Shown here: positions 1 to 62,707 of the stretch, one piece after another
Layout: the number at the start of each line of letters is the position of its first letter
Numbering within the stretch: position 1 is the first letter of the stretch
Assembly (NCBI GenBank): GCA_965603015.1
Contig: CBFDBJ010000005.1
Location: forward strand, 3,080 to 67,079
Reading direction: 5' to 3'
DNA length: 64,000 nucleotides
Source of the DNA: an uncultured Alphaproteobacteria bacterium
Lineage (GTDB): Bacteria > Pseudomonadota > Alphaproteobacteria > M2410
Translations under genes and position numbers: made by a program
The notes under the pieces: generated by a model
What the model saw: the letters and a program-made list of their open reading frames with translations, nothing else
Databases searched by the model: none
What the model was told of the DNA's origin: nothing

Positions 1-804
1 CGACAAACAGGATCGACAGGGAAACGAGAATCAACCCGAATGAAAAACTTCGTCCTGATATCTGTCCGGGAGTGATGATGAGGACCACGGGAATGACAAG
101 GGCGCCGATCAGAATCAATACCCGGACGGCGACCAGGATCGCATCCGGAGCGAAAAATCCGGCCAGCAGGAGAGCAAGGAACCCGCCGCCAAACCCGAAC
201 AGCAGCACCTGCCGGAACAGGCGCGGCAAATGATATCCAAAAACGGTCGTGACCATAAGGGTCCCCGCCAGGCCCATCAGGGCCATTGGAGCATAGTCGG
301 TGCCAAGAAAATCAAGCGCGCCAATCTTGAGCCCCGCGATAATCGACCTGAATTCAAAGATCCAGACAGAAAGCGTGAAGGCGAAGACCGCTCCGGACCG
401 CCAGCTCAGAGACCAGATCCCGACCACTGCAGAAAGCGCCAACAGGGCGCCAGCGAGCACTTTGATGACAATACCCAGAACCGCTTGCTGCTTGCCCTGT
501 GCAGCAAGATCGCGCTCATTCCAGACAAACCCCTGGGCAGCGTTACTTTCAGGCGGGACAATTGCCGGTTTTTCACGGGGTAAAGCTTCCTCGGGATTTT
601 GGGCAGGATCCGAGGCTGGCTCAGGCTTTGCCTGCCTTTTTGGTTCTGCAGATTTTTCTTCGTCGCCTGGCTTGCGGCGCGGTGTGACCTGAGCGATCTG
701 CCAGGTGTTGTCAGCGCGAAAGGACGGCGATGTCCCGGCCTGCGCTTCTTCAGGAAACGCTCCTGCCGCGCCAAAAGCCAACAGGAGGAGCAGAGCCACT
801 GTCA
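1..804 (-). CDS. Hypothetical secreted/membrane protein, N-terminal 268 aa only; the C-terminus lies beyond the window start. It has a signal peptide, a Pro/Glu-rich linker and a multi-pass hydrophobic domain.
   Basis: My own minus-strand translation from ATG at 802-804 reads MTVALLLLLAFGAAGAFPEEAQA..., an acidic/Pro-rich stretch, then several hydrophobic segments (VLGIVIKVLAGALLALSAVVGIW..., LLFGFGGGFLALLLAGFF..., VLILIGALVIPVVLII). There is no stop before position 1, which is why the supplied ORF track does not list it. Confidence 0.45.
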
Positions 805-861
805 TGGAGGCCGGTAAGCATTTTTTCTTGAAACTGTTCAGAACCCACACCCACATTGACA

Positions 862-1449
862 TTACGGCCTCGGATCGCTTGCCAGCATAGCAAACAGAAG
901 ATGATCCTGCCAGTCGCCGTTAATGCGCAGATACTTGCGTGCGACGCCCTCTTCGGTAAATCCAACCCGCTTGAGAAGACGACGCGAGGGCTCGTTTGTC
1001 GGCAGGCAAGCCGCCTCAACTCTGTGCAATCCCGCCCGGTCGAAGATGAAGGGCAAAATCGCGCGCGCAGCCTCCGTCATATGTCCCTTGCCGGAATACA
1101 TTTCGCCAACCCAATACCCCAGAGAACAACTCTGAGCCACGCCCCGGCGCACATTGGATATGATACTGCTTCCAATCAGCTTGTCAGTGCCGCTGTCGAA
1201 CAGAAAGAATGGATAGGATGTATCGTCTCTCAATTCGCGGGCGTAACGGCGCAACCGTCTTCGGAAGGCCGGGCGGGTCAAATCATCAATGGGCCATACC
1301 GGCTCCCAGGGCGTCAGAAAATCCTTACTCTGATCACGCAAAGACGCCCATTCGGCGTAGTCGGCCATGACCGGATGGCGCAAATAAACCCCGTTACCGG
1401 AAATCACTTCATCGGCTTCAAGGCCGCCTGTGGATCTCAAGATTACCAT
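862..1449 (-). CDS. GNAT family N-acetyltransferase (RimJ/RimL-like)
   Basis: 195 aa ORF with a GNAT-like core (..GYWVGEMYSGKGHMTEAARAILPFIFDRAGLHRVEAACLPTNEPSRRLLKRVGFTEEG..). Confidence 0.75.
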   Translation of the reverse strand: MVILRSTGGLEADEVISGNGVYLRHPVMADYAEWASLRDQSKDFLTPWEPVWPIDDLTRPAFRRRLRRYARELRDDTSYPFFLFDSGTDKLIGSSIISNVRRGVAQSCSLGYWVGEMYSGKGHMTEAARAILPFIFDRAGLHRVEAACLPTNEPSRRLLKRVGFTEEGVARKYLRINGDWQDHLLFAMLASDPRP

Positions 1450-6853: not shown

Positions 6854-7741
6854 CTAATGGGCGGCGGGAACAGCTCCCATTGAGCCCCATACGTAGATGG
6901 CGGCAAACAGGAAAATCCAGACGGTATCAACAAAGTGCCAATACCAGGCTGCGGCTTCAAAGCCGAAATGCTGTTCCGGCTTGAAGTGGCCAGCGTATAC
7001 CCGGAACAGGCAAACGAACAGGAAGATTGTTCCGACGATCACATGGAACCCGTGGAACCCGGTCGCCATAAAGAACGTCGCGCCATAAACGTTGCCGGAG
7101 AAACCGAAGGCGGCGTGGGCATATTCGTAAGCCTGCACGCAACTAAAGATAATCCCGAGGATAACCGTGATCCACAAGGCAAGCTTTGTGGTCTTGCGAT
7201 CACCGTGGCGCAGCGCGTGGTGGGCCCAGGTCACCGTGAAACTTGATGTGACCAGAATGACCGTGTTGAGGAACGGCAGATGCCACGGGTCAAAAGTCGC
7301 GATGCCCTCAGGTGGCCAGACACCGCCAAACAGCTCGGTCCGATCAACGCGGCCGACAATATCCCCGGAGGTCGATGTCGGGCTTTCAGGAAACAGGGCC
7401 GCATTGAAGTAGGCCCAGAACCAGGCGACGAAGAACATCACTTCAGACGCAATGAAGAGCACCATGCCGTAGCGCAAGCCCAGCTGGACAACCGCCGTAT
7501 GATCCTTGCCGCTATTGGCTTCCTTGATGACATCGCGCCACCATCCGACCATGGTGAACAGCACCGCTGCCAGACCGATCAGAAAGACCGCAGGACCTGA
7601 CGCACCGAAAAGCCCGCCGTTGGCAGTTTGCATCCAGATGATCGCGCCGACCGCCATAATAAAGGCGCTCAGTGATCCAACAGCCGGCCAGGGGCTCGGG
7701 TTGACCAGGTGATAGTCGTGATTTACCTCATCATGTGCCAT
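6854..7741 (-). CDS. ctaE: Cytochrome c oxidase subunit III
   Basis: 295 aa starting [19 protein letters not shown], with 7 TM helices and typical COX3 blocks ([20 protein letters not shown]). Confidence 0.9.
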
Positions 7742-7815
7742 AATTTTTTCTCTTCTTACTTTTGGACTTCATAATTTCGAAACGGGCTACCATCAGGCGG
7801 CTCGCAAGGTGTTGC

Positions 7816-8373
7816 TTATCCGGTCTCTTCTTCTACCTCGAAGAAGGTGTAGGACAAGGTAATGGTTCCAACATTATCGAGGTTTTTATCCTCGGCAATG
7901 TCAGGATCAACAAAAAAGGTGACCGGCATATCAATGGTTTCGCCCGGTCCGAGAATTTGTTCAGTAAAACAGAAACATTCAATTTTGCTGAAATAACTGC
8001 CCGCTTTGGACGGTGACACGTTGAAGGATGCCGTTCCCGTCACCGTTCTGTCGGAGTGATTGGTTGCCCGATAAAAGGCGATTGATGGTTCGCCAACCTT
8101 GACACCCATTGTATTTTCCAGCGGCTTGAAGTCCCAGGGCATCTGATGCGCGACATTGGCGTCAAAGCGAATGGTCATGGCCCGATCGAGAACCTGTGTC
8201 GGCGCGGCATAGGCAATTTGCGTCGTCCCGGCGTATCCGGTTACACGGCAGAATATATTGTAAAGCGGCACTGCAGCGTAGGACAGGCCAATCATGCCGA
8301 CAAAAATCCCTGCGCAAATGAGACCCGTCGCGTTCTTGCCGCGCAGTCTCTTGCCAGGCGATTTCGTCGCCAT
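7816..8373 (-). CDS. ctaG: Cytochrome c oxidase assembly protein CtaG/Cox11
   Basis: Cox11 signature YNIFCRVTGYAGTTQ with a single N-terminal TM helix. I chose the internal ATG (MATKSPGKR...), which removes the overlap with the upstream small ORF. The ORF-track start would be 8454. Confidence 0.85.
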   Translation of the reverse strand: MATKSPGKRLRGKNATGLICAGIFVGMIGLSYAAVPLYNIFCRVTGYAGTTQIAYAAPTQVLDRAMTIRFDANVAHQMPWDFKPLENTMGVKVGEPSIAFYRATNHSDRTVTGTASFNVSPSKAGSYFSKIECFCFTEQILGPGETIDMPVTFFVDPDIAEDKNLDNVGTITLSYTFFEVEEETG

Positions 8374-8607: not shown

Positions 8608-9549
8608 CTAAACTCCAAAGCCAAGGATGCCGCTGGCATCCAGGCCCAAAATAAGAAATTCCGCAAAAAGATAAAAGATAGAAAAGCCAAACAGCTTCTT
8701 TGCTGCGGCGTCTTCCTCGCCGCGCATGCGCCAGATGTTGAAGGCGTAGTAGATGAAAATAGCGCTCAGGATTACTGTCAGGACGCCGTAGACCGGTCCG
8801 ACAAACCCCAAGGCCAATGGCAGGAGTGCCGTGGGAGCCAGCAACAAGGCGTAGACAAAAATCTGAAGCCGTGTCGATTTTTTGCCCGCCACAACAGGCA
8901 TCATGGGAATACCGGCCGCCTCATAGTCTCCAGCCCGGTAGAGCGACAGAGCCCAGAAATGTGGCGGCGTCCACATGAAGATAATGGCGAAAAGAGACAG
9001 GGAGGCGAACGATACATCCCCCGTCACCGCCGCCCAGCCAATCATCGGAGGAAGGGCGCCAGCTGCGCCGCCAATGACAATGTTCTGCGGCGTCTTTCGT
9101 TTCAGCCACATGGTATAAAAAAGCACATAGTAGCCGATCGTCAGCGCAAGGAGCGCGGCCGCAACGAAATTCACCATGAACGCCATCGAGAAGATAGAAA
9201 GAAAGGACAGTACGAGGCCAAGGGTCAGCGCTTCGCTGGCCGGGATGCGCCCGGCGGCAACCGCACGATCTTTGGTCCGTTCCATCTTTGTATCGATGTC
9301 GGCGTCATACCACATATTAAGCGAGGCAGAGGCCCCCGCACCAACCGCAATGGCAAGGATCGCCGCCACGGCAATGACCGGGTCAATAGACCCCGGTGCC
9401 GCGACCAGTCCGATGACGGCAGTAAAGATCGACAGGCGCATGACACCCGGTTTCAGGAGAGAATAGTAGTCACCAACGGTCGCCACTGTTCCTCCTTCTT
9501 CGAGGGAGACATCTCCCATAACTTCCATATCTGCAATGCTCTGGGGCAT
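8608..9549 (-). CDS. ctaB: Protoheme IX farnesyltransferase (heme O synthase)
   Basis: 313 aa polytopic UbiA-superfamily protein with YYSLLKP, DADID and WTPPHFWAL motifs. It sits between ctaD and ctaG. Confidence 0.9.
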   Translation of the reverse strand: MPQSIADMEVMGDVSLEEGGTVATVGDYYSLLKPGVMRLSIFTAVIGLVAAPGSIDPVIAVAAILAIAVGAGASASLNMWYDADIDTKMERTKDRAVAAGRIPASEALTLGLVLSFLSIFSMAFMVNFVAAALLALTIGYYVLFYTMWLKRKTPQNIVIGGAAGALPPMIGWAAVTGDVSFASLSLFAIIFMWTPPHFWALSLYRAGDYEAAGIPMMPVVAGKKSTRLQIFVYALLLAPTALLPLALGFVGPVYGVLTVILSAIFIYYAFNIWRMRGEEDAAAKKLFGFSIFYLFAEFLILGLDASGILGFGV

Positions 9550-9561
9550 TAGCCAGGCGCC

Positions 9562-12107
<2,546 letters not shown>

Positions 12108-12662
12108 CGTTTTTCCTTCTTCTTTTTTGTTATCAGCTGGCGTCCAGATACCATGCTGTTGTCGGGAGGTGGACAAGATAAACGTAATCCACGGTCCTTC
12201 AGTTTTATTCTGAGCTGTGGCCCTTGTGGTCCTTGATATCTGATTGAAAAGAACAGCCGCCCCGGCAAAAGAATTTTTACAAAATCAACACTGAACGCCG
12301 AATTTCCGCCGATCAATGATCACAAAATAGTGAGTGGCGCAAGGTTTGTTTTATTTGCAATCAAGTCGCAATCCAGGCTGGTGCCCGTCGGAAGGGTTTG
12401 TTAACTATTTCCCCAGACTGGAGCCTTTCCAGACATTGGCGGTTTGGATACGGTGACAGCGAGATCCGGGCCAAATCAACTTTGTGGAAATAGCCACCCC
12501 GGGTCAGCAGCCGGCTGACGGCAATGGTGTGTTGTCTCCATGATCAGAATGTCTATTCTGGACGCCAGAGCCGGTTTTCGACTGCTGCGCCAGAATCAAC
12601 TTACATGTTGCGAATCAGTGAAGGTCCCCTTCAGAACCCTGCCTTATCGAGGATCCAACCCA

Positions 12663-14090
12663 ATGTCTTCCCGTGATGACGACTTCTTTTTCAACCGCAA
12701 CGACCTCGATCAGGGCCGTATTCAGAAAATTGTTGATGATACGCTGCATGGCGGGGACGACGGAGAGCTGTATTTCGAATATTGCCAGTCCGAGGGCTTC
12801 ATGTTCGACGATGGCCGGTTGAAAAACGCCAGCTTCGATACCTCTCAAGGTTTTGGTCTGCGCAGTGTTGCGGGAGAGACCACCGGCTTTGCCCACTCCT
12901 CCGAACTCTCGGAAGCCGCTATAAAGCGCGCCGCCGATGCCGTGGTTGCGGTCAAGTCAGGGCACACCGGTGTCATGGCCGACGATCCGCGCGGCACCAA
13001 CCTCTCGCTTTATACCGATGACAATCCGGTCAACGGCGTGGATTTCGGGACCAAGGTCAAGCTGATGCAGGATATTGACGCCTATGCCAGAGCCAAGGAC
13101 CCGCGCATAAGACAGGTCTCGTGCTCGCTCACCGGCGAATGGTCTGTCGTTGCGATCATGCGCGCCGATGGTCAGATGATGCGGGACGTTCGACCCCTTG
13201 TGCGGCTCAATGTGTCGATTATGGCCGGCGTTGGAGATCGTCAAGAGTCTGGCTCATCGGGTACTGGCGGGCGCACCGGGTATGATTTCTACCTGCAGCC
13301 TGACGTGTGGCAGGGCGAGGTTGACGAGGCACTCAGGCAGGCGCTGGCCAATCTGGAGGCCGTTGATGCCCCGGCGGGCGAGATGACCGTTGTGCTCGGG
13401 CCCGGCTGGCCTGGCATTCTCCTGCACGAAGCGATCGGTCACGGCCTTGAGGGCGACGCAAACCGCAAAAAGACTTCGGCCTTTGCCGGGCTGCTCGGCG
13501 AGCGGATTGCCTCGCCAGGCGTAACGGTCATAGATGATGGCACCATTGCCGACCGGCGCGGCAGTCTCAGCATTGATGACGAGGGAACACCGTCGCAAAA
13601 GACCGTGCTGATCGAAGACGGTATTTTGAAAGGCTACATGCATGACCGGATGAATGCCCGGCTCATGGGCCACGCGCCGACAGGCAACGGTCGCCGACAG
13701 TCCTATGCCTGCCAGCCGCTGCCGCGTATGACCAACACATTGATGCTGGGCGGCAAGGACGATCCGGGTGAAATCCTGGGCAGCGTCAACTCGGTCCTTT
13801 ATTGTACATCCTTCGGCGGCGGTCAGGTCGACACGACGAATGGCAAGTTCGTGTTCTCGTGCACCGAGGCCTACAAGATCGAAAACGGCAAGCTCGGCGC
13901 GCCGGTCAAAGGCGCAACGCTCATTGGCAATGGGCCAGACTGCCTGACCCGGGTTTCCATGATCGGCAACGACATGGCTATGGATCGCGGCATCGGCACC
14001 TGCGGTAAGGGCGGCCAGAGCGTGCCGGTTGGCGTGGGTCAGCCGACGCTACGGCTCGATGGCATTACCGTTGGCGGGACGTCAACCTGA
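12663..14090 (+). CDS. tldD: Metalloprotease TldD
   Basis: TldD/PmbA family (GDDGELYFEY..., HEAIGHGLEGD). I chose ATG at 12663, preceded by a GAGGA RBS. The ORF-track start at 12540 adds a non-conserved 41 aa. Confidence 0.9.
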   Translation: MSSRDDDFFFNRNDLDQGRIQKIVDDTLHGGDDGELYFEYCQSEGFMFDDGRLKNASFDTSQGFGLRSVAGETTGFAHSSELSEAAIKRAADAVVAVKSGHTGVMADDPRGTNLSLYTDDNPVNGVDFGTKVKLMQDIDAYARAKDPRIRQVSCSLTGEWSVVAIMRADGQMMRDVRPLVRLNVSIMAGVGDRQESGSSGTGGRTGYDFYLQPDVWQGEVDEALRQALANLEAVDAPAGEMTVVLGPGWPGILLHEAIGHGLEGDANRKKTSAFAGLLGERIASPGVTVIDDGTIADRRGSLSIDDEGTPSQKTVLIEDGILKGYMHDRMNARLMGHAPTGNGRRQSYACQPLPRMTNTLMLGGKDDPGEILGSVNSVLYCTSFGGGQVDTTNGKFVFSCTEAYKIENGKLGAPVKGATLIGNGPDCLTRVSMIGNDMAMDRGIGTCGKGGQSVPVGVGQPTLRLDGITVGGTST

Positions 14091-14129: not shown

Positions 14130-15773
14130 ATGTCTGAAACACGGATCTATTCGGCCAAAAAAATCATTACCATGAATAACTACCGCGCGACCGCAAGCCA
14201 TGTGGCGGTGCGGGACGGGCGTATATTGGGCGTCGGTGATTTGAAGGATCTTGAGACCTGGGGCGACTACGTTCTCGATGATCGCTATAGCGACAAGGTT
14301 CTGTTGCCAGGCTTTGTCGAGGGACACGGCCACATGCTTGAAGCGACAATGTGGGCCAATCACTATGCCGGATTTTTTCCCCGTCTTGATCCTTTCGGTG
14401 TGAAACACGAGGGCCTCAAATCGATCGATGACGTCGTCGCCATGTTGAAGCGCAAGGACGCGGAGATAGATGATCCAGAGGCACCCCTGGTCGCCTGGTG
14501 CTTTGATCCGATCTATTTCGGCGGACGCCGGATGACGCGCGAAGACCTTGACAGTGTCTCGACCACGCGACCGGTTCTGGTGCTGCACGCAAGCCTGCAC
14601 ATTACCAATGTCAATCAGGCCTTTGTTGATCAGGTGGGCTGGCAGGAGGCCGATGATGTTGTCGGCATCAAACGCCATGCAGACGGCACCGCCAGCGGCG
14701 AAATGCACGGTGCTGCCAATCACTACGCGATGGTCTGGGCCATGCGCCAGGGCCGCAATACCAACTCCGGAGCCAACGACAGCCACCGCGCCGAATGGGA
14801 GCAATATGGCCGGATCGCAACACGGGCCGGGGTCACCACACTGACTGATCTTGGCGCGACCCTTTCAGAAAAAGGCACAAAAATCCTGAGTGAATGGTCA
14901 AGAGAGCCGGATGCGCCTTTCCGCCTGGTCCCTGCCCTCCTCGCTACTGCCATCCCGACCGCAGACGGACTTGCCAGCCTCAAGGCGGTTGAAAGCATGG
15001 GCACGGACAAACTCAAACTGGGAATTGTGAAGCTTGTCGTTGACGGGTCCATCCAGGGGTTCACGGGGCGCCTGCGCTGGCCCGGCTATGCCAATGGTAC
15101 TGAAAACGGCATCTGGAACGTCGAGCCTTCGGATCTGCCTGGCCGCCTTGGCACCTATCACGATGCTGGCTATCAAGTTCACATTCACACCAACGGTGAC
15201 GAGGCAACAGCGGTGGCGCTCGACGCCCTCGAAGAGGTTCTGTCGCGTAACCCGCGCCCTGATCACCGCCACACGCTGCAGCATTGTCAGATGGCAGACG
15301 AAGCACAGTTTCGCCGCATCAAGGCACTCGGTGTTTGTGTCAATCTGTTCTCCAATCACCTTTATTATTGGGGTGACCAACACATGACCGAAACCATGGG
15401 GCCGGACCGGGCGCGCCGGATGAATGCAACAGGCACCGCGGAACGGCTGGGCGTTCCCTTTACGATCCATTCGGACACGCCGATCACGCCGCTCGACCCG
15501 CTTTTTACGGCCTGGTGCGCGGTCAATCGGTTGACGGAGTCCGGTGAAGTGCTGGGCCCGGACGAGTGTATCTCTGTTCAATCTGCCCTGCGCGCTATCA
15601 CCCTTGGCGCAGCTTACACTCTAAAGATGGACGGCGAGATCGGGTCCATAGAGGCAGGTAAATGGGCTGACTTTGCGGTCCTTGATGCAGATCCGCTCGA
15701 AGTGGATCCACGTGCCCTCAAGGATATTCCTGTTTCCGGCACCATGATTGGCGGGCGTGCGGTCGAAAGCTGA
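14130..15773 (+). CDS. Amidohydrolase family protein (YtcJ-like, Amidohydro_3), metal-dependent hydrolase
   Basis: 547 aa with an N-terminal HGH metal-binding motif (FVEGHGHMLEA) and HIHTNGDEA, typical of TIM-barrel amidohydrolases. It lies 39 bp after tldD. Its stop overlaps the next gene's start (ATGA). Confidence 0.8.
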   Translation: MSETRIYSAKKIITMNNYRATASHVAVRDGRILGVGDLKDLETWGDYVLDDRYSDKVLLPGFVEGHGHMLEATMWANHYAGFFPRLDPFGVKHEGLKSIDDVVAMLKRKDAEIDDPEAPLVAWCFDPIYFGGRRMTREDLDSVSTTRPVLVLHASLHITNVNQAFVDQVGWQEADDVVGIKRHADGTASGEMHGAANHYAMVWAMRQGRNTNSGANDSHRAEWEQYGRIATRAGVTTLTDLGATLSEKGTKILSEWSREPDAPFRLVPALLATAIPTADGLASLKAVESMGTDKLKLGIVKLVVDGSIQGFTGRLRWPGYANGTENGIWNVEPSDLPGRLGTYHDAGYQVHIHTNGDEATAVALDALEEVLSRNPRPDHRHTLQHCQMADEAQFRRIKALGVCVNLFSNHLYYWGDQHMTETMGPDRARRMNATGTAERLGVPFTIHSDTPITPLDPLFTAWCAVNRLTESGEVLGPDECISVQSALRAITLGAAYTLKMDGEIGSIEAGKWADFAVLDADPLEVDPRALKDIPVSGTMIGGRAVES

Positions 15774-16684
15774 TGTCAGATCCAGCTCCCCTCACAGTTA
15801 TTGGCGGTTTCCTGGGCGCAGGGAAAACCACGCTGGTCAATCATATCCTGACCGAGGCCGCAAAGACCGGCGGCGGCGTGCGATACGCCGTCCTGGTCAA
15901 CGACTTTGGTGACCTTGCCATTGATGAAAGCCTCATCGAAAAACATGATGGCACCACCATTGCGCTGGCCAACGGCTGTATCTGCTGCACCATCGGCAAT
16001 GATCTCTTTGAAACTGTGATGGACCTGATGGAACGTGAGATGCCGCCGGAGCATTTGATCATTGAGGCGAGCGGCGTTGCAGATCCTCGCCCCATCGCAG
16101 AACTTGGCAGTCTCAACCCGCACCTGTCGCGGGACCTCACAGTCGTTGTCATTGATGCAGAACAGATCCAGGCACAATGGAAAGACGAGCGCCTGCGCGA
16201 CACAGTGGAGCGACAGATCCAGGCGGCCAACCTCCTTGTTCTGAATAAAATCGAAACTCTCGAACCGGCCGACCTGTCCGAACTGGATCTATGGCTTGAT
16301 ACCCATGCAGCAGGCGTGCCCCGCTTGAAAGCCGATAAAGGCCGCATTCCCCTTTCAATTCTCGATGATCGGTCCTTTACAGGGGGCAGGCCCGGCGCCT
16401 CTGTCTTTCATGATCAGGATCACAGCACACTGTTCCAAACTCGCACCCTCGAGATCGATCCCGCGATAACCCGCGACCTTTTTCGCCAAAAGGCAAGGAT
16501 GCTGCCCCGTTCAATCCTGCGCGCCAAGGGCTATGTCACCCTGAACGGCAAGACCCACCTCTTTCAAAAGGTGGGTCCGCGTTTTTCCCTTACACCCTCA
16601 CTGCATGAGGTTCCGGATGACAAGGCTAACAAGATCGTCGTGATCGGGATCGGCGACCTGCCGTCTCTCCCATGGTTTTCATGA
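15773..16684 (+). CDS. COG0523/CobW-family G3E GTPase (putative zinc metallochaperone)
   Basis: P-loop GFLGAGKTTLVN, the CxCC metal motif GCICCT, and a CobW C-terminal domain. Translationally coupled to the amidohydrolase. Confidence 0.85.
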   Translation: MSDPAPLTVIGGFLGAGKTTLVNHILTEAAKTGGGVRYAVLVNDFGDLAIDESLIEKHDGTTIALANGCICCTIGNDLFETVMDLMEREMPPEHLIIEASGVADPRPIAELGSLNPHLSRDLTVVVIDAEQIQAQWKDERLRDTVERQIQAANLLVLNKIETLEPADLSELDLWLDTHAAGVPRLKADKGRIPLSILDDRSFTGGRPGASVFHDQDHSTLFQTRTLEIDPAITRDLFRQKARMLPRSILRAKGYVTLNGKTHLFQKVGPRFSLTPSLHEVPDDKANKIVVIGIGDLPSLPWFS

Positions 16685-29768: not shown

Positions 29769-29895
29769 GATTCCTGCGGATGTCCGGACATTAACAGCGG
29801 AATCGGGGGCTGCAAGTGTCAGGATTCTTTACAGTTCATCAACACTTCCACGCAGAAAATATCACAACCCCTTGAAATTAATCATATATTTTTTC

Positions 29896-29911
29896 TGGCA
29901 CAAAGATTGCT
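29896..29911 (+). promoter_or_regulatory. Sigma-54 (-24/-12) promoter TGGCACaaagaTTGCT upstream of the first PEP-CTERM gene
   Basis: Matches the TGGCAC-N5-TTGCW consensus (GG-N10-GC spacing), 48 bp upstream of the ATG at 29959. A near-identical site precedes the paralog. Confidence 0.55.
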
Positions 29912-29958
29912 TAATTGGGGCTGTAATGACGGGTTCTGATTTTTAAGGAGTAGGGATT

Positions 29959-30660
29959 ATGGGAACGAAGTTGAATAGAAAAGTTCTAGGCCTTGGCGCT
30001 GCACTGATTGGTGCTGTATTTGCCTCTGCCTCTGCCTATGCGGGCGCAGTATTGGTGATGATCGATGATCTCGGTGGCACAGTCGCCGTTGTAGATAATG
30101 GCGCAGGCGATTCGGATGCGACTGTTGGCGTTATCAATTACAACGGGGCGATCGGCGCATGGCTGGTTACAGCGGAGATCGGCGTTTCCAAGCCTATCGT
30201 TGGCTCAGCCTCGGAAGCTCAAGTGGATTTGCTCTCGGTTAACGCTTCAAGCGGCGCTGCCGGGGACCTTTATGTTCTGTTTTCCGATACGGATTTCATC
30301 AGCACGGGCGGCAACATGTGGTTTGACCTTGCCATTGGCGGGACCACTGACGGGACCGTCGAGACTGCCGGTTGCTTCAACGCCAGCAATTCAAACTGGA
30401 TGGACGAGGGCTTATGCGAAAACCTGTTTCTGCTTTCGCCAGTCCTGAACACAAATCCATTTTCATGGGCCGGTGGCACTTCGGTTGCAACATCCGGTGA
30501 CCTGTTCAGCCTTGGTATTGGCGCTTTGATTAGCCATGACAAAGGCGGGATTACGAGCTTTGACGCCAACCTGCGTGTGCCAGAGCCTGGCATGCTTGGC
30601 TTCCTCGGCTTTGGTCTCCTCGGCATGGGCCTTGCTGCCCGTCGTCGCCGGAAAGCATAA
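29959..30660 (+). CDS. Secreted PEP-CTERM sorting-domain protein (putative exosortase substrate), paralog 1
   Basis: 233 aa with signal peptide (AYAGAV), a Gly/Thr/Ser-rich domain with two Cys, and a C-terminal VPEP-GMLGFLGFGLLGMGLAA-RRRRKA (PEP motif, TM helix, basic tail). An AAGGAG RBS lies 8 nt upstream. Confidence 0.8.
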   Translation: MGTKLNRKVLGLGAALIGAVFASASAYAGAVLVMIDDLGGTVAVVDNGAGDSDATVGVINYNGAIGAWLVTAEIGVSKPIVGSASEAQVDLLSVNASSGAAGDLYVLFSDTDFISTGGNMWFDLAIGGTTDGTVETAGCFNASNSNWMDEGLCENLFLLSPVLNTNPFSWAGGTSVATSGDLFSLGIGALISHDKGGITSFDANLRVPEPGMLGFLGFGLLGMGLAARRRRKA

Positions 30661-30692
30661 GCAGACAATAGAATTCAGAACCAGAATTTGGA

Positions 30693-30724
30693 GCGGCCCG
30701 CCTTTGGCGGGCCGCTTTTTTATT
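30693..30724 (+). terminator. Rho-independent terminator
   Basis: GCGGCCCGCC-TTT-GGCGGGCCGC: a 10-bp GC stem followed by TTTTTTATT. Confidence 0.8.
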
Positions 30725-30848
30725 GGGCTCGCAAAACAGTCCCCCTGCACACCCTTCCTGTCGGGAGAGTGTCGGGATTCTTTACGGTTCAGGTCCGTAC
30801 AAATATGGTTAATTCAATAACCCATTGAAAATGCGGTGTTATTTTATC

Positions 30849-30864
30849 TGGCACGACGCTTGCT
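30849..30864 (+). promoter_or_regulatory. Sigma-54 (-24/-12) promoter TGGCACgacgcTTGCT upstream of the second PEP-CTERM gene
   Basis: Same consensus match and spacing as the site at 29896. It lies 79 bp upstream of the ATG at 30943. Confidence 0.55.
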
Positions 30865-30942
30865 AATAAGGGGTATCGCCCATGAGGGGTTTTTGGTCTT
30901 TTGTACCAGTTGTGTAACAGTCAGAGTTGAGTGGTGAGTGTA

Positions 30943-31635
30943 ATGAAAAGTAAAACAGCCCTGAGTATTGGGATTGCCCTTTTGGGTATAGTGTGTGGCT
31001 CTTCGAGTGCGTTTGCAGGCGCAATGATGGTGCTGATTGATGATCTCGGCGGCACAGTCGCTATTGTAGATAACGGTGCAGGCGATTCGGATGCGACTGT
31101 TGGTGTTATCAATTACAACGGGGCGATCGGCGCATGGCTGGTTACAGCGGAAATCGGCGTTTCCAAGCCTATCGTTGGCTCAGCCTCGGAAGCTCAAGTG
31201 GATTTGCTCTCGGTTAACGCGTCAAGTGGCGCTGCCGGAGAGCTTGTCGTTTTGTTCTCTGATACAGATTTCATCAGTACGGGCGGCAACATGTGGTTTG
31301 ATCTTGCCATTGGCGGCACAACTGATGGAACCGTTGTAACGGGTGGCTGCTACAATGCCAGCAATACGAACTGGACCGATGGTGATTCATGCGAAAACCT
31401 GTTTCTGCTTTCGTCGGATCTGACCGGAAATCCATTTTCATGGCTTGACGGTGGATTGGTTGCAACATCCGGTGACTTGTTCAGCCTTGGTATCGGGGCT
31501 GCGATTGTCCACGACAAAGGCGGCATTACCAGCTTTGATGCCAACCTGCGTGTGCCAGAGCCTGGCATGCTTGGCTTCCTCGGCTTGGGTCTCCTCGGCA
31601 TGGGCCTTGCTGCCCGTCGTCGTCAAAAGGCATAA
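30943..31635 (+). CDS. Secreted PEP-CTERM sorting-domain protein, paralog 2
   Basis: 230 aa, about 85% identical to paralog 1, with the same architecture and C-terminal VPEPGMLGFLGLGLLGMGLAARRRQKA. I chose ATG at 30943 (MKSKTAL...). An alternative GTG lies at 30931. Confidence 0.8.
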   Translation: MKSKTALSIGIALLGIVCGSSSAFAGAMMVLIDDLGGTVAIVDNGAGDSDATVGVINYNGAIGAWLVTAEIGVSKPIVGSASEAQVDLLSVNASSGAAGELVVLFSDTDFISTGGNMWFDLAIGGTTDGTVVTGGCYNASNTNWTDGDSCENLFLLSSDLTGNPFSWLDGGLVATSGDLFSLGIGAAIVHDKGGITSFDANLRVPEPGMLGFLGLGLLGMGLAARRRQKA

Positions 31636-31668
31636 GCAGACAATAGAATTCAGAACCCGAATTTGGAG

Positions 31669-31700
31669 CGGCTCGCCTTTGGCGGGCCGTTTCTTTTTTG
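31669..31700 (+). terminator. Rho-independent terminator (near-identical copy of the one at 30693)
   Basis: CGGCTCGCC-TTT-GGCGGGCCG stem followed by TTTCTTTTTTGG. Confidence 0.8.
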
Positions 31701-31825: not shown

Positions 31826-33184
31826 ATGACATCCCAGAGTGAGCTCTCCGGCAGCTCCATAGAAGACGTTGTCGCAGCCCTTGTGAAGGAAGCGATCAAG
31901 GCTGGCGCAGATGCTGCCGATGCACTCGTGGCCGAGGGGATATCCCATGCGGCCTCGTTTCGCCTTGGCAAGCTGGAGGATATCGAGCGCTCCGAGGGTC
32001 AGGACCTGGGCCTCAGGGTGATGGTTGGCCAGCGCCAGGCGGCGGTTTCATCCAGCGATCTTTCAAGAGAAGGGCTCCAGCCCCTGGCCGAGCGGGCTGT
32101 GGCCATGGCGAAACTGGCGCCGGAGGATCCTTATTGTGGGCTCGCGCCGGACGATCGCCTCGCCAAGGACTTCCCGGACCTTGATCTCATTGATCCGGTG
32201 GAGCCGGGCTCCGACCATCTCATAGAACTGGCCCGGACCGCCGAGGAGGCTGCCCTTGCCATTGAGGGTGTTACCAATTCCGGCGGTGCAGGCGCAAGCT
32301 GGGGGCGATCCGGCATCGTGCTGGCGACCTCGGCCGGATTTGTTGGCCGGTATGGCGGAACCTCGCAAGGTGTCTCTGTTTCTGTTGTCGCCGGTGAAGG
32401 TGCCGCGATGGAGCGCGACTATGACTTCACCCAGGCGCGCCATGCAGAAGACCTCGAGAGCGCGGCTAAAATCGGCCAGAGCGCCGGGGAGCGCGCCGTA
32501 AAACGGTTGAATGCTCGCAAGATGGCCAGCCAGAGCGTGCCCGTTGTTTACGACCCAAGGGTTTCCTCGGGTCTTGTCGGGCATCTGGCCGGGGCAATAT
32601 CGGGCTCCGGCATTGCCCGGGGCTCAAGCTTCCTCAAGGACCAGATGTGTAAGCAAATTTTCAAAGCGGGCCTTTGCATCATCGATGATCCACATCGCAA
32701 GCGCGGTTTCGGGTCAAAGCCGTTCGACGGCGAAGGCGTTGCCAACAAGCGCCACAATCTCATTGAAGATGGCCGCCTCACCACGTGGCTGCTCGACACC
32801 GCCACGGCCCGGCAGCTCGGGCTTGAGACCACCGGGCATGCCAGCCGGGGCATCGGCGGACCGCCCTCGCCCGGCGCGACAAATCTCTATATGGAGCCCG
32901 GCGACCTGAGCGCGGACGAACTCATCGCAGACATAAAATCGGGGCTTTATATCACCCAGCTCATCGGCTCGGGCGTCAACGGCATCACCGGCGATTACAG
33001 CCGCGGCGCGTCGGGCTTCTGGATCGAGAACGGCGAGATTGTTTTTGCGGTCAACGAGATTACCGTCGCGGGCAATCTCAAATCCATGTTTGCCGAGATG
33101 ACGCCGGCCAACGACCTTGAGTTCAAAGGCCGTGTCAACGCGCCAACCATACGCATCGATGGCATGACCATCGCCGGAACGTGA
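31826..33184 (+). CDS. pmbA: Metalloprotease PmbA/TldE
   Basis: 452 aa TldD/PmbA family protein without the HExxxH motif of TldD, which matches PmbA. Confidence 0.9.
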   Translation: MTSQSELSGSSIEDVVAALVKEAIKAGADAADALVAEGISHAASFRLGKLEDIERSEGQDLGLRVMVGQRQAAVSSSDLSREGLQPLAERAVAMAKLAPEDPYCGLAPDDRLAKDFPDLDLIDPVEPGSDHLIELARTAEEAALAIEGVTNSGGAGASWGRSGIVLATSAGFVGRYGGTSQGVSVSVVAGEGAAMERDYDFTQARHAEDLESAAKIGQSAGERAVKRLNARKMASQSVPVVYDPRVSSGLVGHLAGAISGSGIARGSSFLKDQMCKQIFKAGLCIIDDPHRKRGFGSKPFDGEGVANKRHNLIEDGRLTTWLLDTATARQLGLETTGHASRGIGGPPSPGATNLYMEPGDLSADELIADIKSGLYITQLIGSGVNGITGDYSRGASGFWIENGEIVFAVNEITVAGNLKSMFAEMTPANDLEFKGRVNAPTIRIDGMTIAGT

Positions 33185-58959: not shown

Positions 58960-59226
58960 GACATGTCTCCTTAATTTTTTGTTATTGTGTTCCCACGCTA
59001 ACACTTGAGGTGCGGGACTTAATACCTGTGTCTTTGCACAAAGCCGCTGTCGCCGCAATCCCCGCGATGCGTGTGCAGGACATTCCGCCTGTCTGTTAAC
59101 CGAATTTAAAATGATCCGAGGATAATCTGTCTGGATTGAGTGTGGGGTTAGCGAACATTTTCCGACAAAGTGCGCCAAAGCCTTGCCTCCTTGAATTGTG
59201 TAACAAACAGTCAGAGAGTGATTGAA

Positions 59227-59613
59227 ATGTCCGTTGATACATCAATGCAAGTCCTCGTAGTCGATGACTATAAGACCATGATCCGCATTATTCGCAACCT
59301 TCTGAAACAACTCGGTTTCAACAATGTTGACGACGCCGCAGATGGCTCCGCCGCATTGGAAATGATGCGCGCCAGAAAATACGGCCTTGTCATCTCCGAC
59401 TGGAACATGGAGCCCATGACCGGTTTCGAGTTGCTCAAGGAAGTGCGGTCTGACGAAAAGCTGAAGGCAACGCCATTCATTATGGTCACAGCTGAGTCCA
59501 AAACAGAAAATGTGATTGCCGCCAAAAAGGCCGGTGTGAACAACTACATCGTCAAACCTTTCAATGCAGCGACATTGAAGGGCAAACTGGTTACTGTCCT
59601 CGGCGACTTCTAG
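59227..59613 (+). CDS. cheY: Chemotaxis response regulator CheY (single REC domain, enteric-like)
   Basis: 129 aa with the phospho-acceptor region LVVDD...ISDWNMEPMTGFELLK...MVTAESK..YIVKPF, closely resembling E. coli CheY. Confidence 0.9.
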   Translation: MSVDTSMQVLVVDDYKTMIRIIRNLLKQLGFNNVDDAADGSAALEMMRARKYGLVISDWNMEPMTGFELLKEVRSDEKLKATPFIMVTAESKTENVIAAKKAGVNNYIVKPFNAATLKGKLVTVLGDF

Positions 59614-59623
59614 GAACCTGACT

Positions 59624-60292
59624 ATGGCACTTCCTGCGGAAATGCCTGCGGATCTCCACAAGGCCATCACATTCTTTTGTGAAAAGGACCCGGAGGACTT
59701 GCAGCTCAATGATGTCTTGGGTGTGACCGAGATCATGGCGCTGTGCCTCAGGGACCTGTTCGCAACCGAAGATACTCCGATCTTTTCGAGTGCCGTTATG
59801 ATGGCGGCCTATGTTCGCGGCGCGCGTGAGCGTTTGAAAAACATTCGCCCGGCAAGTCTGCGGGACGAAGACCTGCCACTTGCAAGAGAAGAGCTGGAAG
59901 CCATCGTTGCTCACACCGAAGAGGCGACCAACACTATTATGGAACTCGCCGAGACCATGATGGGACTTGACCCGGAAGACAGCAACTACCCCGAAACAAT
60001 CAATGACAGTCTGATGCAAATCTTTGAGGCCTGTGCGTTCCAGGATATTACCGGGCAAAGGGCGGGCAAGGTCGCTGACACAATCGCAACCACATCAGAT
60101 CAAATTTCTGTAGTTGCCTCAGTCCTGGGAAGTACACATGATAAAACCGTTGGTCCTGCTGAAGAAACCGAAGAGGAAGCGCGTCGCCGCGAGAACCTGC
60201 TTCACGGACCCCAGAGCGGCGACGTGGCTGTCACGCAGGATGAGGTTGATGAAATGATCAATCAGGATGATATTGATTCTCTTTTCGATTGA
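59624..60292 (+). CDS. cheZ: CheY-P phosphatase CheZ
   Basis: 222 aa with the catalytic CheZ motif FQDITGQ and a C-terminal CheY-binding peptide (LLHGPQ...VTQDEVDEMI...DSLFD) like E. coli CheZ. Confidence 0.8.
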   Translation: MALPAEMPADLHKAITFFCEKDPEDLQLNDVLGVTEIMALCLRDLFATEDTPIFSSAVMMAAYVRGARERLKNIRPASLRDEDLPLAREELEAIVAHTEEATNTIMELAETMMGLDPEDSNYPETINDSLMQIFEACAFQDITGQRAGKVADTIATTSDQISVVASVLGSTHDKTVGPAEETEEEARRRENLLHGPQSGDVAVTQDEVDEMINQDDIDSLFD

Positions 60293-60312
60293 CCCTTCAG
60301 CCAACCCAATGA

Positions 60313-61200
60313 TCAACCCACCAGCCAGGGCATTGCATAAGTTGGCCAATTTCCTTCAGAGCCAAATACCTCACCCATTCCGGATTGATCCAGCCCACCA
60401 TCGGAGTTGAAACAATCTTCCGAATGAATGCCGCCGCCGATAAAAAGGCTGTCGAAACGCTGATCCAGCGCTCCTCTGATATCCGTCTTCGGACCGTCCC
60501 CGACAACAAGGATCCGCTCCCGGTTCACTTGCCCTGATACAGCACCGCTGGAATCCGCGATGAGATCAAGGCAGTGATTATAGATGGGGGCATGGGGTTT
60601 GCCGGCATAGGTCGCCTGACCGCCTTTCTTCTCGTAGGCTTCAGCAAGAGCCCCGCCGCAGTAAATCAACCTGTCGCCACGCTGGACAACAATGTCAGGG
60701 TTGGCGCAAATCATTTCCAGTTGACGCTCAAGGGCCTGCGCCAAAAGGTTTTGGTAATCATCCGGAGTTTCGGTCTCATCATCAAACAGTCCACTGCACA
60801 ATATGAAGTCGGCATCCTCCAGGGATGTCTTTTTCAACCCCATACCATCGAGCAGCGACTGATCACGCTCCGGGCCCAGGTGGAAGACCGAACGACCGCG
60901 GAAGCGTTCAAGCTCAACCCGCGTCACATCGCCGGAACTTGCCATATGATCATAAATATCGAGGGGCACACCGATCTCGTCAAATTGTGGCAGAAGCAGC
61001 TTTGAGGGCCGCGGAGCGTTCGTGATCAAAACAACCAGACCGCCGCTTGCTCGCCAGGCCTGCAGGGCTGCTATCGCCTCGCGAAAGGGGGTCTGGCCAT
61101 TGTGAACCACGCCCCAGATGTCGCAGAGAAGCGCATCGTAGCGCTGTCTCAAAGTTCCGAGCCCCGATACAATTTCCACATGGTTTTGCGATCCTGCCAT
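60313..61200 (-). CDS. HAD-superfamily class IIA hydrolase (TIGR01459-like)
   Basis: 295 aa with HAD motif I (LLCDIWGVV) and motif IV (VVGDGPKTDIRGA). Confidence 0.8.
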   Translation of the reverse strand: MAGSQNHVEIVSGLGTLRQRYDALLCDIWGVVHNGQTPFREAIAALQAWRASGGLVVLITNAPRPSKLLLPQFDEIGVPLDIYDHMASSGDVTRVELERFRGRSVFHLGPERDQSLLDGMGLKKTSLEDADFILCSGLFDDETETPDDYQNLLAQALERQLEMICANPDIVVQRGDRLIYCGGALAEAYEKKGGQATYAGKPHAPIYNHCLDLIADSSGAVSGQVNRERILVVGDGPKTDIRGALDQRFDSLFIGGGIHSEDCFNSDGGLDQSGMGEVFGSEGNWPTYAMPWLVG

Positions 61201-61309
61201 ATCTGTTTTCGCCCCGGTCTTGTCTGAAAATACGAACGGCGCGGGTTATAACAGTATGTCAAAGGTTTCGGGGATTTTTCTGAAGTCGCGCCGGAACCTG
61301 CGGCGAAAG

Positions 61310-62707
61310 CTAGAAACCGGACGCCTGATCCTCGTCTGGAGCATGATAGGCAATTGGTTTCCACATCGGACCGCGGTCATAGTCTCTGGACCCTTGCGCG
61401 CCGATTGCCGCTTCAACTTCTTCAAGCGGTCTTGGTTCACCGAACAGGTATCCCTGGCCGAATTTCACTTCATATTCGAGAACCTCCACGACCTGAGATT
61501 CTTGCTCGAGACGCTCGATAATCAAATCAATTCCGAACCGACCGAGCAGTTCGTGCAGATCAGATGGATGAACAAAAGAACTCCCCGGTTCTGCATTGCC
61601 ATGCAGGAAGAGGCCGCTGGCGACCTTGATATAGCGGAAGTTACGTTGGCGCAGATCCGGCAAATCCAGATCAAGATCGCCAACACGATCAAGCGAAAAC
61701 TTGAACCCAAGTTCGGCCAGACGCGACAGGTTCTTGCTCTCGTCAGGACCGCATTTGTCGATGGTCTCCCTGGCAAACTCAAAGACAAGCGTATCGGCCA
61801 GGTCCGCGTTGAAAGACATGAAATCGAGGAAATAGGGGAAGAAGTTCCTGTCCTGCAGAGAATTCAGAGAGATGTTGCACATAATGGCAATATCCGTCTT
61901 GTGTTCAGCGAGGCGTCGCACCACTTGCACGCAGCGGAAAAGAAGCAGGTTATCAATGATTGACATCAGACCTGCAGGCTCGGCGACGCGCAGGTACTGA
62001 GCGGGCAGAATGAGTTCGCCATTTTCACTGCGCAGTCTGGACAGGGCTTCATAGAAACAGATCTGGCGCTGCGGCAAGGTAACAATTGGCTGAAGGTAAA
62101 GATCAACACGGTTTTCCTCAAGCGAAGATCGAATGATACGCAGCAGCTCCTGCTCGCTCATGGAATCAAACAGGGCCGCCTTGTCACCCGGCGTCATATC
62201 ACCATTTTTTTCTGCTTCACTCAGGGCTTGTTCAATGCTGCCAATCAGACGCTTGACCGCTTGCGGATCATTGCCTGTGAGAACGTTGGTCTGGGCTTGC
62301 TCGACAACTTCCATCGCAGCCTTGCGAGCCTTCTTCTCGAGTTCGCCGGCCATTTGCCTGATCAGCGTTTCAAGCAAACGAACTTCAGAGATTACCTGAT
62401 GATTGCGTTGCTGAACTTTTTCTTCAAAAGACTCGGCCAGGTCATCGTTCTGCCCACGCATGAGATCAATTTCTTCTGAAAGCGCGAGCTTGCCGTTTTG
62501 CAGGAAGGTGAGCTCATTCTCGAACGACTGGCGTTCCTGCGCCCGATTAAACGTCTGGTGAACCTGGGCGGCCAGCAAAAACGACAAAGTGCTCGTCACG
62601 AGAGCGCCGGCCAGTTCGAATCCGAAGACCCTGAAACAGACAATCCCGATGGCTGCAGAAAGAACCACATAGGAAAGAGTGATAAGCCAATTTGTAAAAC
62701 TCGGCAT
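61310..62707 (-). CDS. EAL-domain c-di-GMP phosphodiesterase with N-terminal membrane anchor and coiled coil (no GGDEF)
   Basis: 465 aa with two N-terminal TM helices, a coiled-coil region and an EAL domain (QPIVTL...YEALSRL, DDFG-like SLDRVGD). Confidence 0.85.
   Translation of the reverse strand: MPSFTNWLITLSYVVLSAAIGIVCFRVFGFELAGALVTSTLSFLLAAQVHQTFNRAQERQSFENELTFLQNGKLALSEEIDLMRGQNDDLAESFEEKVQQRNHQVISEVRLLETLIRQMAGELEKKARKAAMEVVEQAQTNVLTGNDPQAVKRLIGSIEQALSEAEKNGDMTPGDKAALFDSMSEQELLRIIRSSLEENRVDLYLQPIVTLPQRQICFYEALSRLRSENGELILPAQYLRVAEPAGLMSIIDNLLLFRCVQVVRRLAEHKTDIAIMCNISLNSLQDRNFFPYFLDFMSFNADLADTLVFEFARETIDKCGPDESKNLSRLAELGFKFSLDRVGDLDLDLPDLRQRNFRYIKVASGLFLHGNAEPGSSFVHPSDLHELLGRFGIDLIIERLEQESQVVEVLEYEVKFGQGYLFGEPRPLEEVEAAIGAQGSRDYDRGPMWKPIAYHAPDEDQASGF

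Follow-up and report, generated by a model that had tools for sequence, protein, structure and literature searches.

In the 64-kb stretch of alphaproteobacterial DNA that was analysed, in the following called the window, two adjacent genes located between ubiD (upstream) and pmbA (downstream) encode a tandem pair of paralogous PEP-CTERM proteins, and each gene is a single-gene operon that carries its own promoter signature and its own strong intrinsic terminator. The locus is a typical case of a system for surface-protein sorting that is already known, and its mature domain belongs to a family that does not have a curated name. We think that the pair is part of a sigma-54-type PEP-CTERM regulon, that its products are sorted by an exosortase and take a lectin-like role in the extracellular matrix, and that it arose through an old duplication; for this explanation as a whole we estimate a probability of about 0.7.

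Both open reading frames are intact and lie on the forward strand. Copy A (29959–30660) starts with ATG and encodes a protein of 233 amino acids, in which a signal peptide (residues ~1–29) is followed by a beta-sandwich domain (~30–206) and the PEP-CTERM tail (207–233). Copy B (30943–31635) has the same architecture and comprises 230 amino acids when counted from the ATG at 30943; translation may alternatively start from a GTG in the same frame at 30931, which results in 234 amino acids. The database entry for copy B, P0002, uses a later start, so that it has only 202 amino acids and is devoid of the signal peptide. Copy A possesses a Shine-Dalgarno sequence, AAGGAG, about 10 nt upstream of its ATG, and the corresponding sequence of copy B is weaker. 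The two proteins can be aligned without gaps over 228 amino acids with 83% identity, which agrees with the initial annotation of this DNA as encoding a tandem pair of similar PEP-CTERM proteins, and the conserved sequence blocks quoted there are indeed found in both of them.

The same annotation had assigned a signal peptide and a PEP-CTERM sorting signal to each protein and had proposed an HMM search for the latter. Both C-termini exceed the curated cut-offs, with 18.8 and 19.8 bits for TIGR02595 (cut-off 16) and 22.1 and 23.3 bits for PF07589 (cut-off 20.7), and by these tail criteria both genes encode PEP-CTERM domain proteins. The N-termini are Sec-like, as judged by inspection, with predicted cleavage between AYA and G in copy A and between AFA and G in copy B. 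In the AlphaFold model, a hydrophobic helix covers residues 7–20 and the tail helix residues 212–232, while residues 31–206 are all beta, and also by inspection there is no other transmembrane segment between signal peptide and tail.

The sigma-54 promoter, activator box and terminator of each copy were absent from the initial annotation. The box is a 17-nt sequence, TGTCnGGATTCTTTAC(A/G), that is found on the forward strand at 29817–29833 upstream of copy A (TGTCAGGATTCTTTACA) and at 30770–30786 upstream of copy B (TGTCGGGATTCTTTACG), where the final base is G (TTTACG). Exact matches to its core, GGATTCTTTAC, occur only twice in the 64 kb. In both copies a spacer of 61 nt separates the box from a -24/-12 element of the form CTGGCAC-N5-TTGCT, which is located at 29895–29911 (CTGGCACAAAGATTGCT; an exact match to TGGCAC-N5-TTGC) and at 30848–30864 (CTGGCACGACGCTTGCT), again on the forward strand, and which is followed by the ATG after 47 nt in copy A and 78 nt in copy B. 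Haft et al. (2006; PMC1569441) described upstream of proteobacterial PEP-CTERM genes a 17-nt motif 1 that ends with TTTACA, followed after about 63 nt (SD 10.6) by a sigma-54 motif with -24(GG) and -12(GC), from which the start codon is about 71 nt (SD 38) away. Both copies agree with these motifs 1 and 2 in box, spacer, sigma-54 element and distance to the start, and the box can be regarded as the predicted PrsR site. Taken by itself, the sigma-54 hexamer pattern does not reach significance, with 9 matches at up to one mismatch versus 6.8 expected in the window; significant is only the composite signature of box and promoter, for which 0.00 chance occurrences are expected. Two further exact sigma-54 matches, at 15949 and 30474, are inside coding regions and were treated as chance.

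In metagenomes, hits to the box in the same register as at copies A and B are followed by PEP-CTERM genes from other families (14 of 17 vs 0 of 57), and since the same signature is thus present upstream of unrelated PEP-CTERM genes, it marks a regulon. Within the spacer of each copy, a putative IHF binding site can be recognized from its sequence on the reverse strand, at 29865–29877 in copy A (TTTCAAGGGGTTG), where it forms a conserved island in the alignment of upstream regions, and at 30818–30830 in copy B (TTTCAATGGGTTA), with an offset that equals those in copy A and in L004, the complete alphaproteobacterial chromosome OZ252216.1, which is treated below. A relaxed IHF consensus is found at the identical offset (32) in 12 of 27 promoters with a PEP-CTERM box. 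Downstream of the genes, the terminators at 30690–30718 and 31665–31693 (forward strand) each consist of a 13-bp stem, with 10 G-C pairs in copy A and 9 in copy B, and a T-run; the predicted RNA folds have energies of -30.6 kcal/mol (z = -4.5) and -29.0 kcal/mol (z = -4.0), respectively. The leader RNAs did not fold better than shuffled sequences (z -1.25 and +0.38), and no Rfam match was found in the whole 64 kb.

The tail-trimmed proteins match no curated Pfam or NCBIfam model, in line with the earlier statement that the mature domain falls outside recognized families. The rarity that this statement implied does not hold, as the family comprises at least 2,285 clusters at 50% identity (E<=1e-30). 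A structure prediction had also been suggested, and the AlphaFold model of copy A (pLDDT 88.4, pTM 0.79) confidently predicts the mature domain to be a compact globular beta-sandwich, probably of the beta-jelly-roll type. This fold resembles carbohydrate-binding modules and lectin-like domains, such as CBM4, CBM61, CBM16, CBM27, CBM6, the hyaluronan-binding CBM70, BtSGBP-B and PA14, at the level of the fold only; no sequence match to any CBM family was obtained in Pfam, NCBIfam or the PDB, and a PDB sequence search with the family profile gave nothing at E<=1. Across the family, D46, D51, G57 and G127–128 are 96–99% conserved, and D90 and D202 are also highly conserved. The pair of cysteines that had been described as conserved is present in both copies and is not a family feature, as it occurs in 23 of 186 members; the region of the loop flanked by these cysteines is where copies A and B differ most.

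A plausible sequence of events would begin with each gene being transcribed as a complete unit of its own. A response regulator of the enhancer-binding NtrC type, for which PrsR with its partner kinase PrsK is the candidate, would bind the upstream box, and with the DNA bent at the IHF-like site in the middle of the spacer it would activate sigma-54 RNA polymerase at the -24/-12 element; the strong terminator would then stop transcription. The product would be exported by the Sec system and lose its signal peptide, and its C-terminal helix and arginine cluster would hold it in the inner membrane until an exosortase of the XrtA/EpsH type, encoded elsewhere, recognizes the VPEP motif and removes the anchor. 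The predicted beta-jelly-roll domain of about 180 amino acids would thereby be passed to the cell surface or the exopolysaccharide matrix, where it would most likely serve as a lectin-like matrix protein by which polysaccharide is held to the cells, as for the unrelated PepA. Glycan binding is the least certain step in this explanation, and we consider it possible rather than probable. The presence of two copies would finally be explained if the whole unit was duplicated in tandem long ago, with gene conversion keeping them partly alike.

The initial annotation suggested an accessory insertion or duplication as the origin of the pair. The setting between ubiD and pmbA and the GC content below that of the flanks (0.49–0.56 over the PEP-CTERM locus versus about 0.57–0.65), on which this view was based, are both observed, and a recent acquisition would also be in keeping with the length of the ubiD-pmbA gap, which varies among Alphaproteobacteria from 162 bp to 4.9 kb, and with the finding of a family member in only 1 of 57 syntenic loci of GTDB representatives. 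However, two other alphaproteobacterial genomes, L081/L082 and L004, carry single-copy relatives at this position between ubiD and pmbA, likewise preceded by the same box, a spacer of again 61 nt and a sigma-54 element, and their identities of 45% and 31–34%, respectively, indicate a long residence. In each of the seven genomes that were compared, the family genes have a lower GC3 than the genes next to them, and the low GC is therefore a property of the gene. Neither integrase, transposase, tRNA nor flanking repeat was found, and the two copies have diverged up to a dS of about 1. Synteny, the conserved promoters in the slot and the family-wide low GC3 thus lead us to reject a recent insertion, which we regard as very unlikely. 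Even less can be said for the idea that one copy has become dispensable and is decaying into a pseudogene, to which the truncated annotation of copy B as P0002, its box ending with TTTACG and its weaker Shine-Dalgarno sequence could point. Both reading frames are intact, a signal peptide is available to copy B from the ATG at 30943, and purifying selection acts on both copies, with a dN/dS of 0.25 overall and 0.03–0.32 in every segment of the mature domain. Moreover, the exact -24/-12 elements, their 61-nt spacing to the box and the terminators have been kept, while the flanking non-coding DNA of the two copies has diverged to about 50–65% identity. The duplication in tandem, which comprised the unit as a whole, is old, and gene conversion has partly homogenised the copies.

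It was already recognized in the initial annotation that the window lacks exosortase and EPS genes, and our search of the 64 kb likewise found neither these nor PrsK, PrsR or PrsT, nor any GAFTGA-type activator or membrane kinase of the size of PrsK. As PEP-CTERM genes for the most part lie dispersed as operons of one gene (Haft et al. 2006, PMC1569441), an exosortase-free window says little. It could be argued from it that the genome has no exosortase and that the pair encodes orphan PEP-CTERM-like proteins, in which the tail simply anchors a periplasmic domain in the inner membrane, and Chlorobium tepidum, the one species listed with PEP-CTERM proteins and without EpsH, provides a precedent (Haft et al. 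2006, Figure 3 legend). This reading is highly improbable, given that the DNA motif upstream of the genes has exactly the phylogenetic profile of PrsR, PrsK and PrsT, and PEP-CTERM that of EpsH (Haft et al. 2006), that VPEP and the rest of the tail are intact in both copies under purifying selection (tail dN 0.035), and that P208 and P210 are 95–97% conserved across the mature-domain family. As far as can be judged from the sequence, the promoters with PEP-CTERM box and sigma-54 element imply a Prs/exosortase system elsewhere in the genome. With regulation and sorting unchanged, the domain could instead be a substrate, structural or glycosylated, that itself becomes linked covalently to polysaccharide or to the outer surface, as was the original idea of Haft et al., or it could form a proteinaceous surface coat. 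Haft et al. (2006; PMC1569441) proposed that the cleaved protein is transferred to some nucleophile in the periplasm that is bound for the EPS layer, and an interaction with EPS through glycosylation has been suggested (PMC9850573); the mature domain is rich in G, A, S, T, N and D and almost without basic residues, as are PEP-CTERM proteins generally (Haft et al. 2006), and the restriction of its CBM likeness to the fold level would fit as well. The compact, confidently predicted globular sandwich and the near-invariant D46, D51, G57 and G127–128 are, on the other hand, features that fit a folded binding module better than a linker-like glycosylation substrate, and we consider a substrate or coat role rather unlikely. 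The glycan-binder and substrate or coat readings are mutually compatible.

The closest known counterpart is the PEP-CTERM/EpsH-XrtA system with PrsK-PrsR-PrsT (Haft et al. 2006, PMC1569441), with which the pair shares the signal peptide and VPEP-helix-Arg tail, the single-gene operons behind large intergenic regions, the 17-nt TTTACA-type box, the spacer of about 62 nt and the sigma-54 -24/-12 motif, as well as the lack of any Pfam domain besides the tail, the lineage-specific paralogous expansion and start sites that are prone to miscalling. Nothing essential differs, except that the window contains neither the exosortase nor the Prs genes, and the mature-domain family of copies A and B was not singled out in that work. 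Two cysteines per mature domain are slightly unusual compared with the reported 0.4% Cys (Haft et al. 2006). The best experimental model of function is PepA of Zoogloea/Aquincola (NF033554; PMC9850573), which keeps EPS bound to the cells. It is likewise a small exported PEP-CTERM protein (~230–260 aa) with an RpoN-type TGGCAC promoter and an upstream enhancer-like sequence, whereas it is betaproteobacterial and adjoins prsT, and copies A and B are found among housekeeping genes in an alphaproteobacterium. The full-length proteins score 33.5 and 36.7 bits against NF033554 floc_PepA (cut-off 80), ten other family members score 22–42 bits, and after removal of the tail no floc_PepA homology is left for the two window proteins at E<=10 or for the ten members at E<=1. 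EDSAP-1 (NF041538) gives 30 and 33.1 bits (cut-off 100). Sub-threshold matches of this kind occur in 35 of 42 members, and membership in either family was rejected because the tail produces them: once it is trimmed, the two window proteins and the ten members give no match. EDSAP-1, THxN, FxDxF, NF038129 and XDP1 share with the pair the tail and a similar size and layout, but the scores are tail-driven and stay far below the cut-offs. The LPXTG/sortase system found in Gram-positive bacteria also combines an N-terminal signal peptide, a C-terminal tripartite signal and a dedicated membrane transpeptidase; it differs in motif, enzyme family and envelope destination and is analogous, not homologous.

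Environmental bacteria contain PEP-CTERM proteins in abundance, and the function is known for very few of them. The locus does not reveal a new mechanism; it is a clean annotated case in which box, IHF-like site, sigma-54 promoter, coding sequence and terminator have been duplicated as a unit, and for annotation it provides a corrected start of copy B, the assignment to a regulon and a large family with a lectin-like predicted fold that still lacks a curated model. It also offers a candidate matrix-binding module. One may speculate further that the beta-sandwich of about 180 amino acids represents a widespread, uncurated family of exosortase cargo and a new type of exopolysaccharide-binding lectin, in which the conserved acidic residues D46, D51, D90 and D202 might form a metal or sugar site and the Cys-stapled variable loop (residues ~133–180) could set the glycan specificity. 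We consider this an unlikely proposal at present; if it is true, tandem pairs such as the one described here would diversify the ways in which the matrix is bound.

The two tandem genes each form, as judged from their sequence, a complete sigma-54 transcription unit, which the initial annotation had missed. Copy A (29959-30660, + strand) is preceded by a predicted 17-nt upstream activator site, the box, at 29817-29833 (+, TGTCAGGATTCTTTACA), which is followed after a spacer of 61 nt by a sigma-54 -24/-12 element at 29895-29911 (+, CTGGCACAAAGATTGCT); the ATG, with an AAGGAG ribosome-binding site in front of it, lies 47 nt further. Copy B (30943-31635, + strand) has the same layout, with the box at 30770-30786 (+, TGTCGGGATTCTTTACG), again a 61-nt spacer, the -24/-12 element at 30848-30864 (+, CTGGCACGACGCTTGCT) and 78 nt from there to the ATG. 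Each gene is followed by a terminator consisting of a 13-bp G+C-rich hairpin and a T-run (30690-30718 for copy A, 31665-31693 for copy B), and these hairpins fold much better than shuffled sequence (z -4.5 and -4.0, respectively), while the leaders of both copies fold no better than shuffled sequence. Haft et al. described proteobacterial PEP-CTERM genes as single-gene operons in which motif 1, 17 nt long with TTTACA at its end, is followed at a distance of 62.8±10.6 nt by a 17-nt sigma-54 -24/-12 motif (motif 2) and, 71±38 nt further, by the start codon; in their proposal, the NtrC-type regulator PrsR acts at motif 1 (Haft et al. 2006, PMC1569441). The two units show this same arrangement of box, spacer, sigma-54 motif and single gene.

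The sigma-54 hexamers by themselves are not significant, as the window contains 9 matches with up to one mismatch against 6.8 expected. The composite pattern TGTC-N7-TTTAC-N45-75-TGGC-N7-TTGC occurs exactly twice in the window, each time directly 5' of one of the two copies, at an expectation of 0.00 from 100 shuffles, and its only occurrences in another 87 loci (about 1 Mb) are 5' of genes of the same protein family, which is defined by the shared mature domain of about 180 aa. An independent scan of metagenome contigs used GATTCTTTAC-N55-67-TGGC-N7-TTGC with the TGTC omitted, and 80 matches were analysed. An in-register TGTC was present in 17 of these, 14 of which precede an ORF with a PEP-CTERM tail, the three exceptions being a cut ORF, a contig end and one ORF without PEP tail. 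Six further PEP-tailed matches carry near-TGTC variants (CGTC, AGTC, TGTA, CGTA), and none of the remaining 57 is associated with a PEP tail. As most of the downstream proteins match the family HMM at tail level only (17-39 bits, with one at 71.8 bits), the signature marks a PEP-CTERM regulon and is not family-specific. The spacer of 27 such promoters measures 61-65 nt, with a mode of 61-62, and 12 of these promoters, both window copies included, possess a relaxed IHF-like consensus at one fixed offset (29865-29877 for copy A, 30818-30830 for copy B). This position fits the usual architecture of activator site, bend and -24/-12 element, in which IHF would bind. Two additional exact TGGCAC-N5-TTGC matches, at 30474-30488 inside the copy A coding sequence (absent from copy B) and at 15949-15963 inside ORF 15773-16684, have no box upstream and were treated as chance occurrences within coding sequence.

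The encoded proteins, of 233 aa for copy A and 230 aa for copy B (234 aa from an in-frame GTG at 30931), align over 228 residues without gaps at 83% identity, so that they are indeed tandem paralogues as first described. Both have N-termini that look like typical Sec signal peptides, with predicted sites AYA|G (copy A) and AFA|G (copy B), and their C-termini, VPEPGMLGFLG...ARRR(R/Q)KA, score above the curated cut-offs of TIGR02595 (18.8 and 19.8 bits, cut-off 16) and PF07589 (22.1 and 23.3 bits, cut-off 20.7), which bears out the proposed sorting signal. The database version of copy B, P0002, has only 202 aa from an internal Met start and lacks the signal peptide, which is recovered from the ATG at 30943 or the GTG at 30931; start-site miscalls are frequent among PEP-CTERM genes (Haft et al. 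2006, PMC1569441).

The family is far from rare. A word-indexed search gave 43 relatives, mostly metagenomic, at 30-45% identity, and an exhaustive profile search gave at least 2,285 representatives of 50%-identity clusters at E<=1e-30, or 5,816 at the looser E<=1e-10, nearly all of 215-250 aa. Common to them are the motifs DxGxGD, TGxSKP, DLNSVNxS, DTDF, IGGTTxGxV and SFDA, followed by VPEP, with D46, D51, G57, G127-128, F168 and S200 conserved at 96-99%. The cysteine pair that had been regarded as conserved is present in both window copies and in only 23 of 186 family members. In 7 of the 42 aligned members, for example P0024 and P0033, a VPDSG-CTERM tail (PF18205) replaces PEP-CTERM, and thus the domain is combined with alternative sorting signals. 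No member reaches a curated full-length NCBIfam cut-off. Sub-threshold scores recur for floc_PepA (22-42 bits, cut-off 80) and EDSAP-1 (23-34 bits, cut-off 100), and membership in either was rejected, as these matches disappeared after tail removal from the two window proteins and ten diverse members. Pfam matches only the tail of family members, and no PDB sequence matches the family profile; the mature domain is therefore without a curated model, in agreement with the original impression that it belongs to no recognised family. Two members deviate in architecture. P0019 (290 aa) has a long Cys/Gln/Pro-rich repeat (PQCWQQSCAPQC...) in place of the PEP-CTERM tail, for which a frameshift, read-through or a truly different C-terminal module are possible explanations. 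P0157 (509 aa) matches the family profile in two stretches and resembles a tandem pair joined by fusion or read-through, suggesting that tandem duplication of the family occurred elsewhere too.

The repeated unit extends from box to terminator (about 29811-30720 and 30755-31695), and its identity is a mosaic, with 97-98% in 30100-30230, 92-97% across tail and terminator, and 50-65% in the promoter and signal-peptide region outside three conserved islands. Between the copies, dS is about 1.0 except in the two tracts of near identity, where it is 0.15-0.20; dN/dS has an overall value of 0.25 and ranges over 0.03-0.32 within the mature domain. Together this indicates that the tandem duplication is old, that gene conversion later affected parts of it, and that both copies are under purifying selection. 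The two proteins differ mostly at residues ~133-180, a region including the Cys-flanked loop.

A duplication or accessory insertion had been suggested from the low GC of the locus, which is indeed 0.49-0.56 against ~0.57-0.65 in the flanking DNA. The duplication stands, but the accessory insertion is not supported. The order ubiD, gap, pmbA, DUF4170 and msbA-like ABC is kept in 57 of 80 alphaproteobacterial ubiD loci, and the gap, of 162 bp to 4.9 kb and with differing contents, looks like a variable slot within an otherwise stable neighbourhood. In one of these 57, L004 from a complete 3.5-Mb MAG chromosome, the gap holds a single-copy family member (31-34% identity) with the box TGTCAAGATTCTTTACA and, after 61 nt, CTGGCCC-N5-TTGCT. 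P0003, the closest relative at 45% identity, is likewise single-copy and directly between ubiD and pmbA, followed by the same ten genes that the window has there, and its box GGTGTCAGGATTCTTTACA is separated by 61 nt from TTGGCAT-N5-TTGCT. Within a small clade, therefore, the gene has long occupied this slot. GC3 of the family genes is below that of their neighbours in all seven genomes compared (L081, L083, L084, L086, L087, L004 and the window; 0.52-0.57 against 0.71-0.73 in the window, 0.36 against 0.75 in L087), so that low GC is a family trait, for which codon usage, expression level and amino-acid composition are all candidate causes. Remoter members are solitary genes amid unrelated housekeeping genes, with box and sigma-54 variants in most of those examined. 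The L004 gap (7555-8289, 9251-10147) also contains ORFs that the window does not have: two small ones precede the family gene, one of 106 aa and one of 133 aa for a membrane protein, and a minus-strand ORF of 298 aa follows it. The window UbiD is up to 79% identical to proteins of many alphaproteobacterial orders (Parvibaculum, Rhizomicrobium, Ferrovibrio, Sneathiella), which makes the source an alphaproteobacterium with no close representative in GTDB.

The other window genes are housekeeping genes (cytochrome oxidase, nap, gshA, ubiA, tldD, lipid A genes, xseA, purD, mutL, ileS, M16 peptidases, a TipF-like EAL protein, CheY/CheZ). As noted initially, a census of the 64 kb found no exosortase-like multi-span protein and no EPS gene, and also no GAFTGA activator; the absence of exosortase and EPS genes is expected, because most PEP-CTERM genes are scattered through the genome (Haft et al. 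2006, PMC1569441). Rfam at gathering threshold gave no match in the whole 64 kb, and no tRNA, rRNA or riboswitch family was detected. ORF 2-862 (-), which runs past the window start, encodes 287 aa with about six hydrophobic segments and has no NCBIfam match at E<=1e-5, so that by this test it is not an exosortase. The window encodes TldD as well as PmbA, the two partners of a protease pair, about 18 kb apart (12540-14090 and 31826-33184; TldD scores 541 bits against NF008006). Near the right end, a CheY-like response regulator, a weak CheZ-like protein and the TipF-like EAL-domain protein (366 bits, under the 600-bit equivalog cut-off) at 59170-62707 hint at a flagellar or c-di-GMP control cluster.

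The best-supported reading is that PrsR and sigma-54 would control transcription of both genes, and that the products would be exported by Sec and then sorted by exosortase to become proteins of the matrix or surface whose domain is lectin-like. As sequence-based predictions, both the regulon and the tail assignment are strong; exosortase cleavage and a surface location are inferred, as is, most tentatively, glycan binding. Among experimentally studied proteins the nearest model is PepA from Aquincola and Zoogloea, which is RpoN-dependent with a start site mapped downstream of TGGCAC/CTGCTT, and the overexpression of which moves EPS from soluble to cell-bound (PMC9850573). The window proteins are outside the PepA family, but by analogy they may work like PepA. 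The locus is an ordinary, well-formed instance of the known PEP-CTERM system, and its value is modest: it represents a large family with a confident fold prediction that still has no curated model, and it is an unusually clear case of a whole PEP-CTERM-box promoter unit that was duplicated and maintained.
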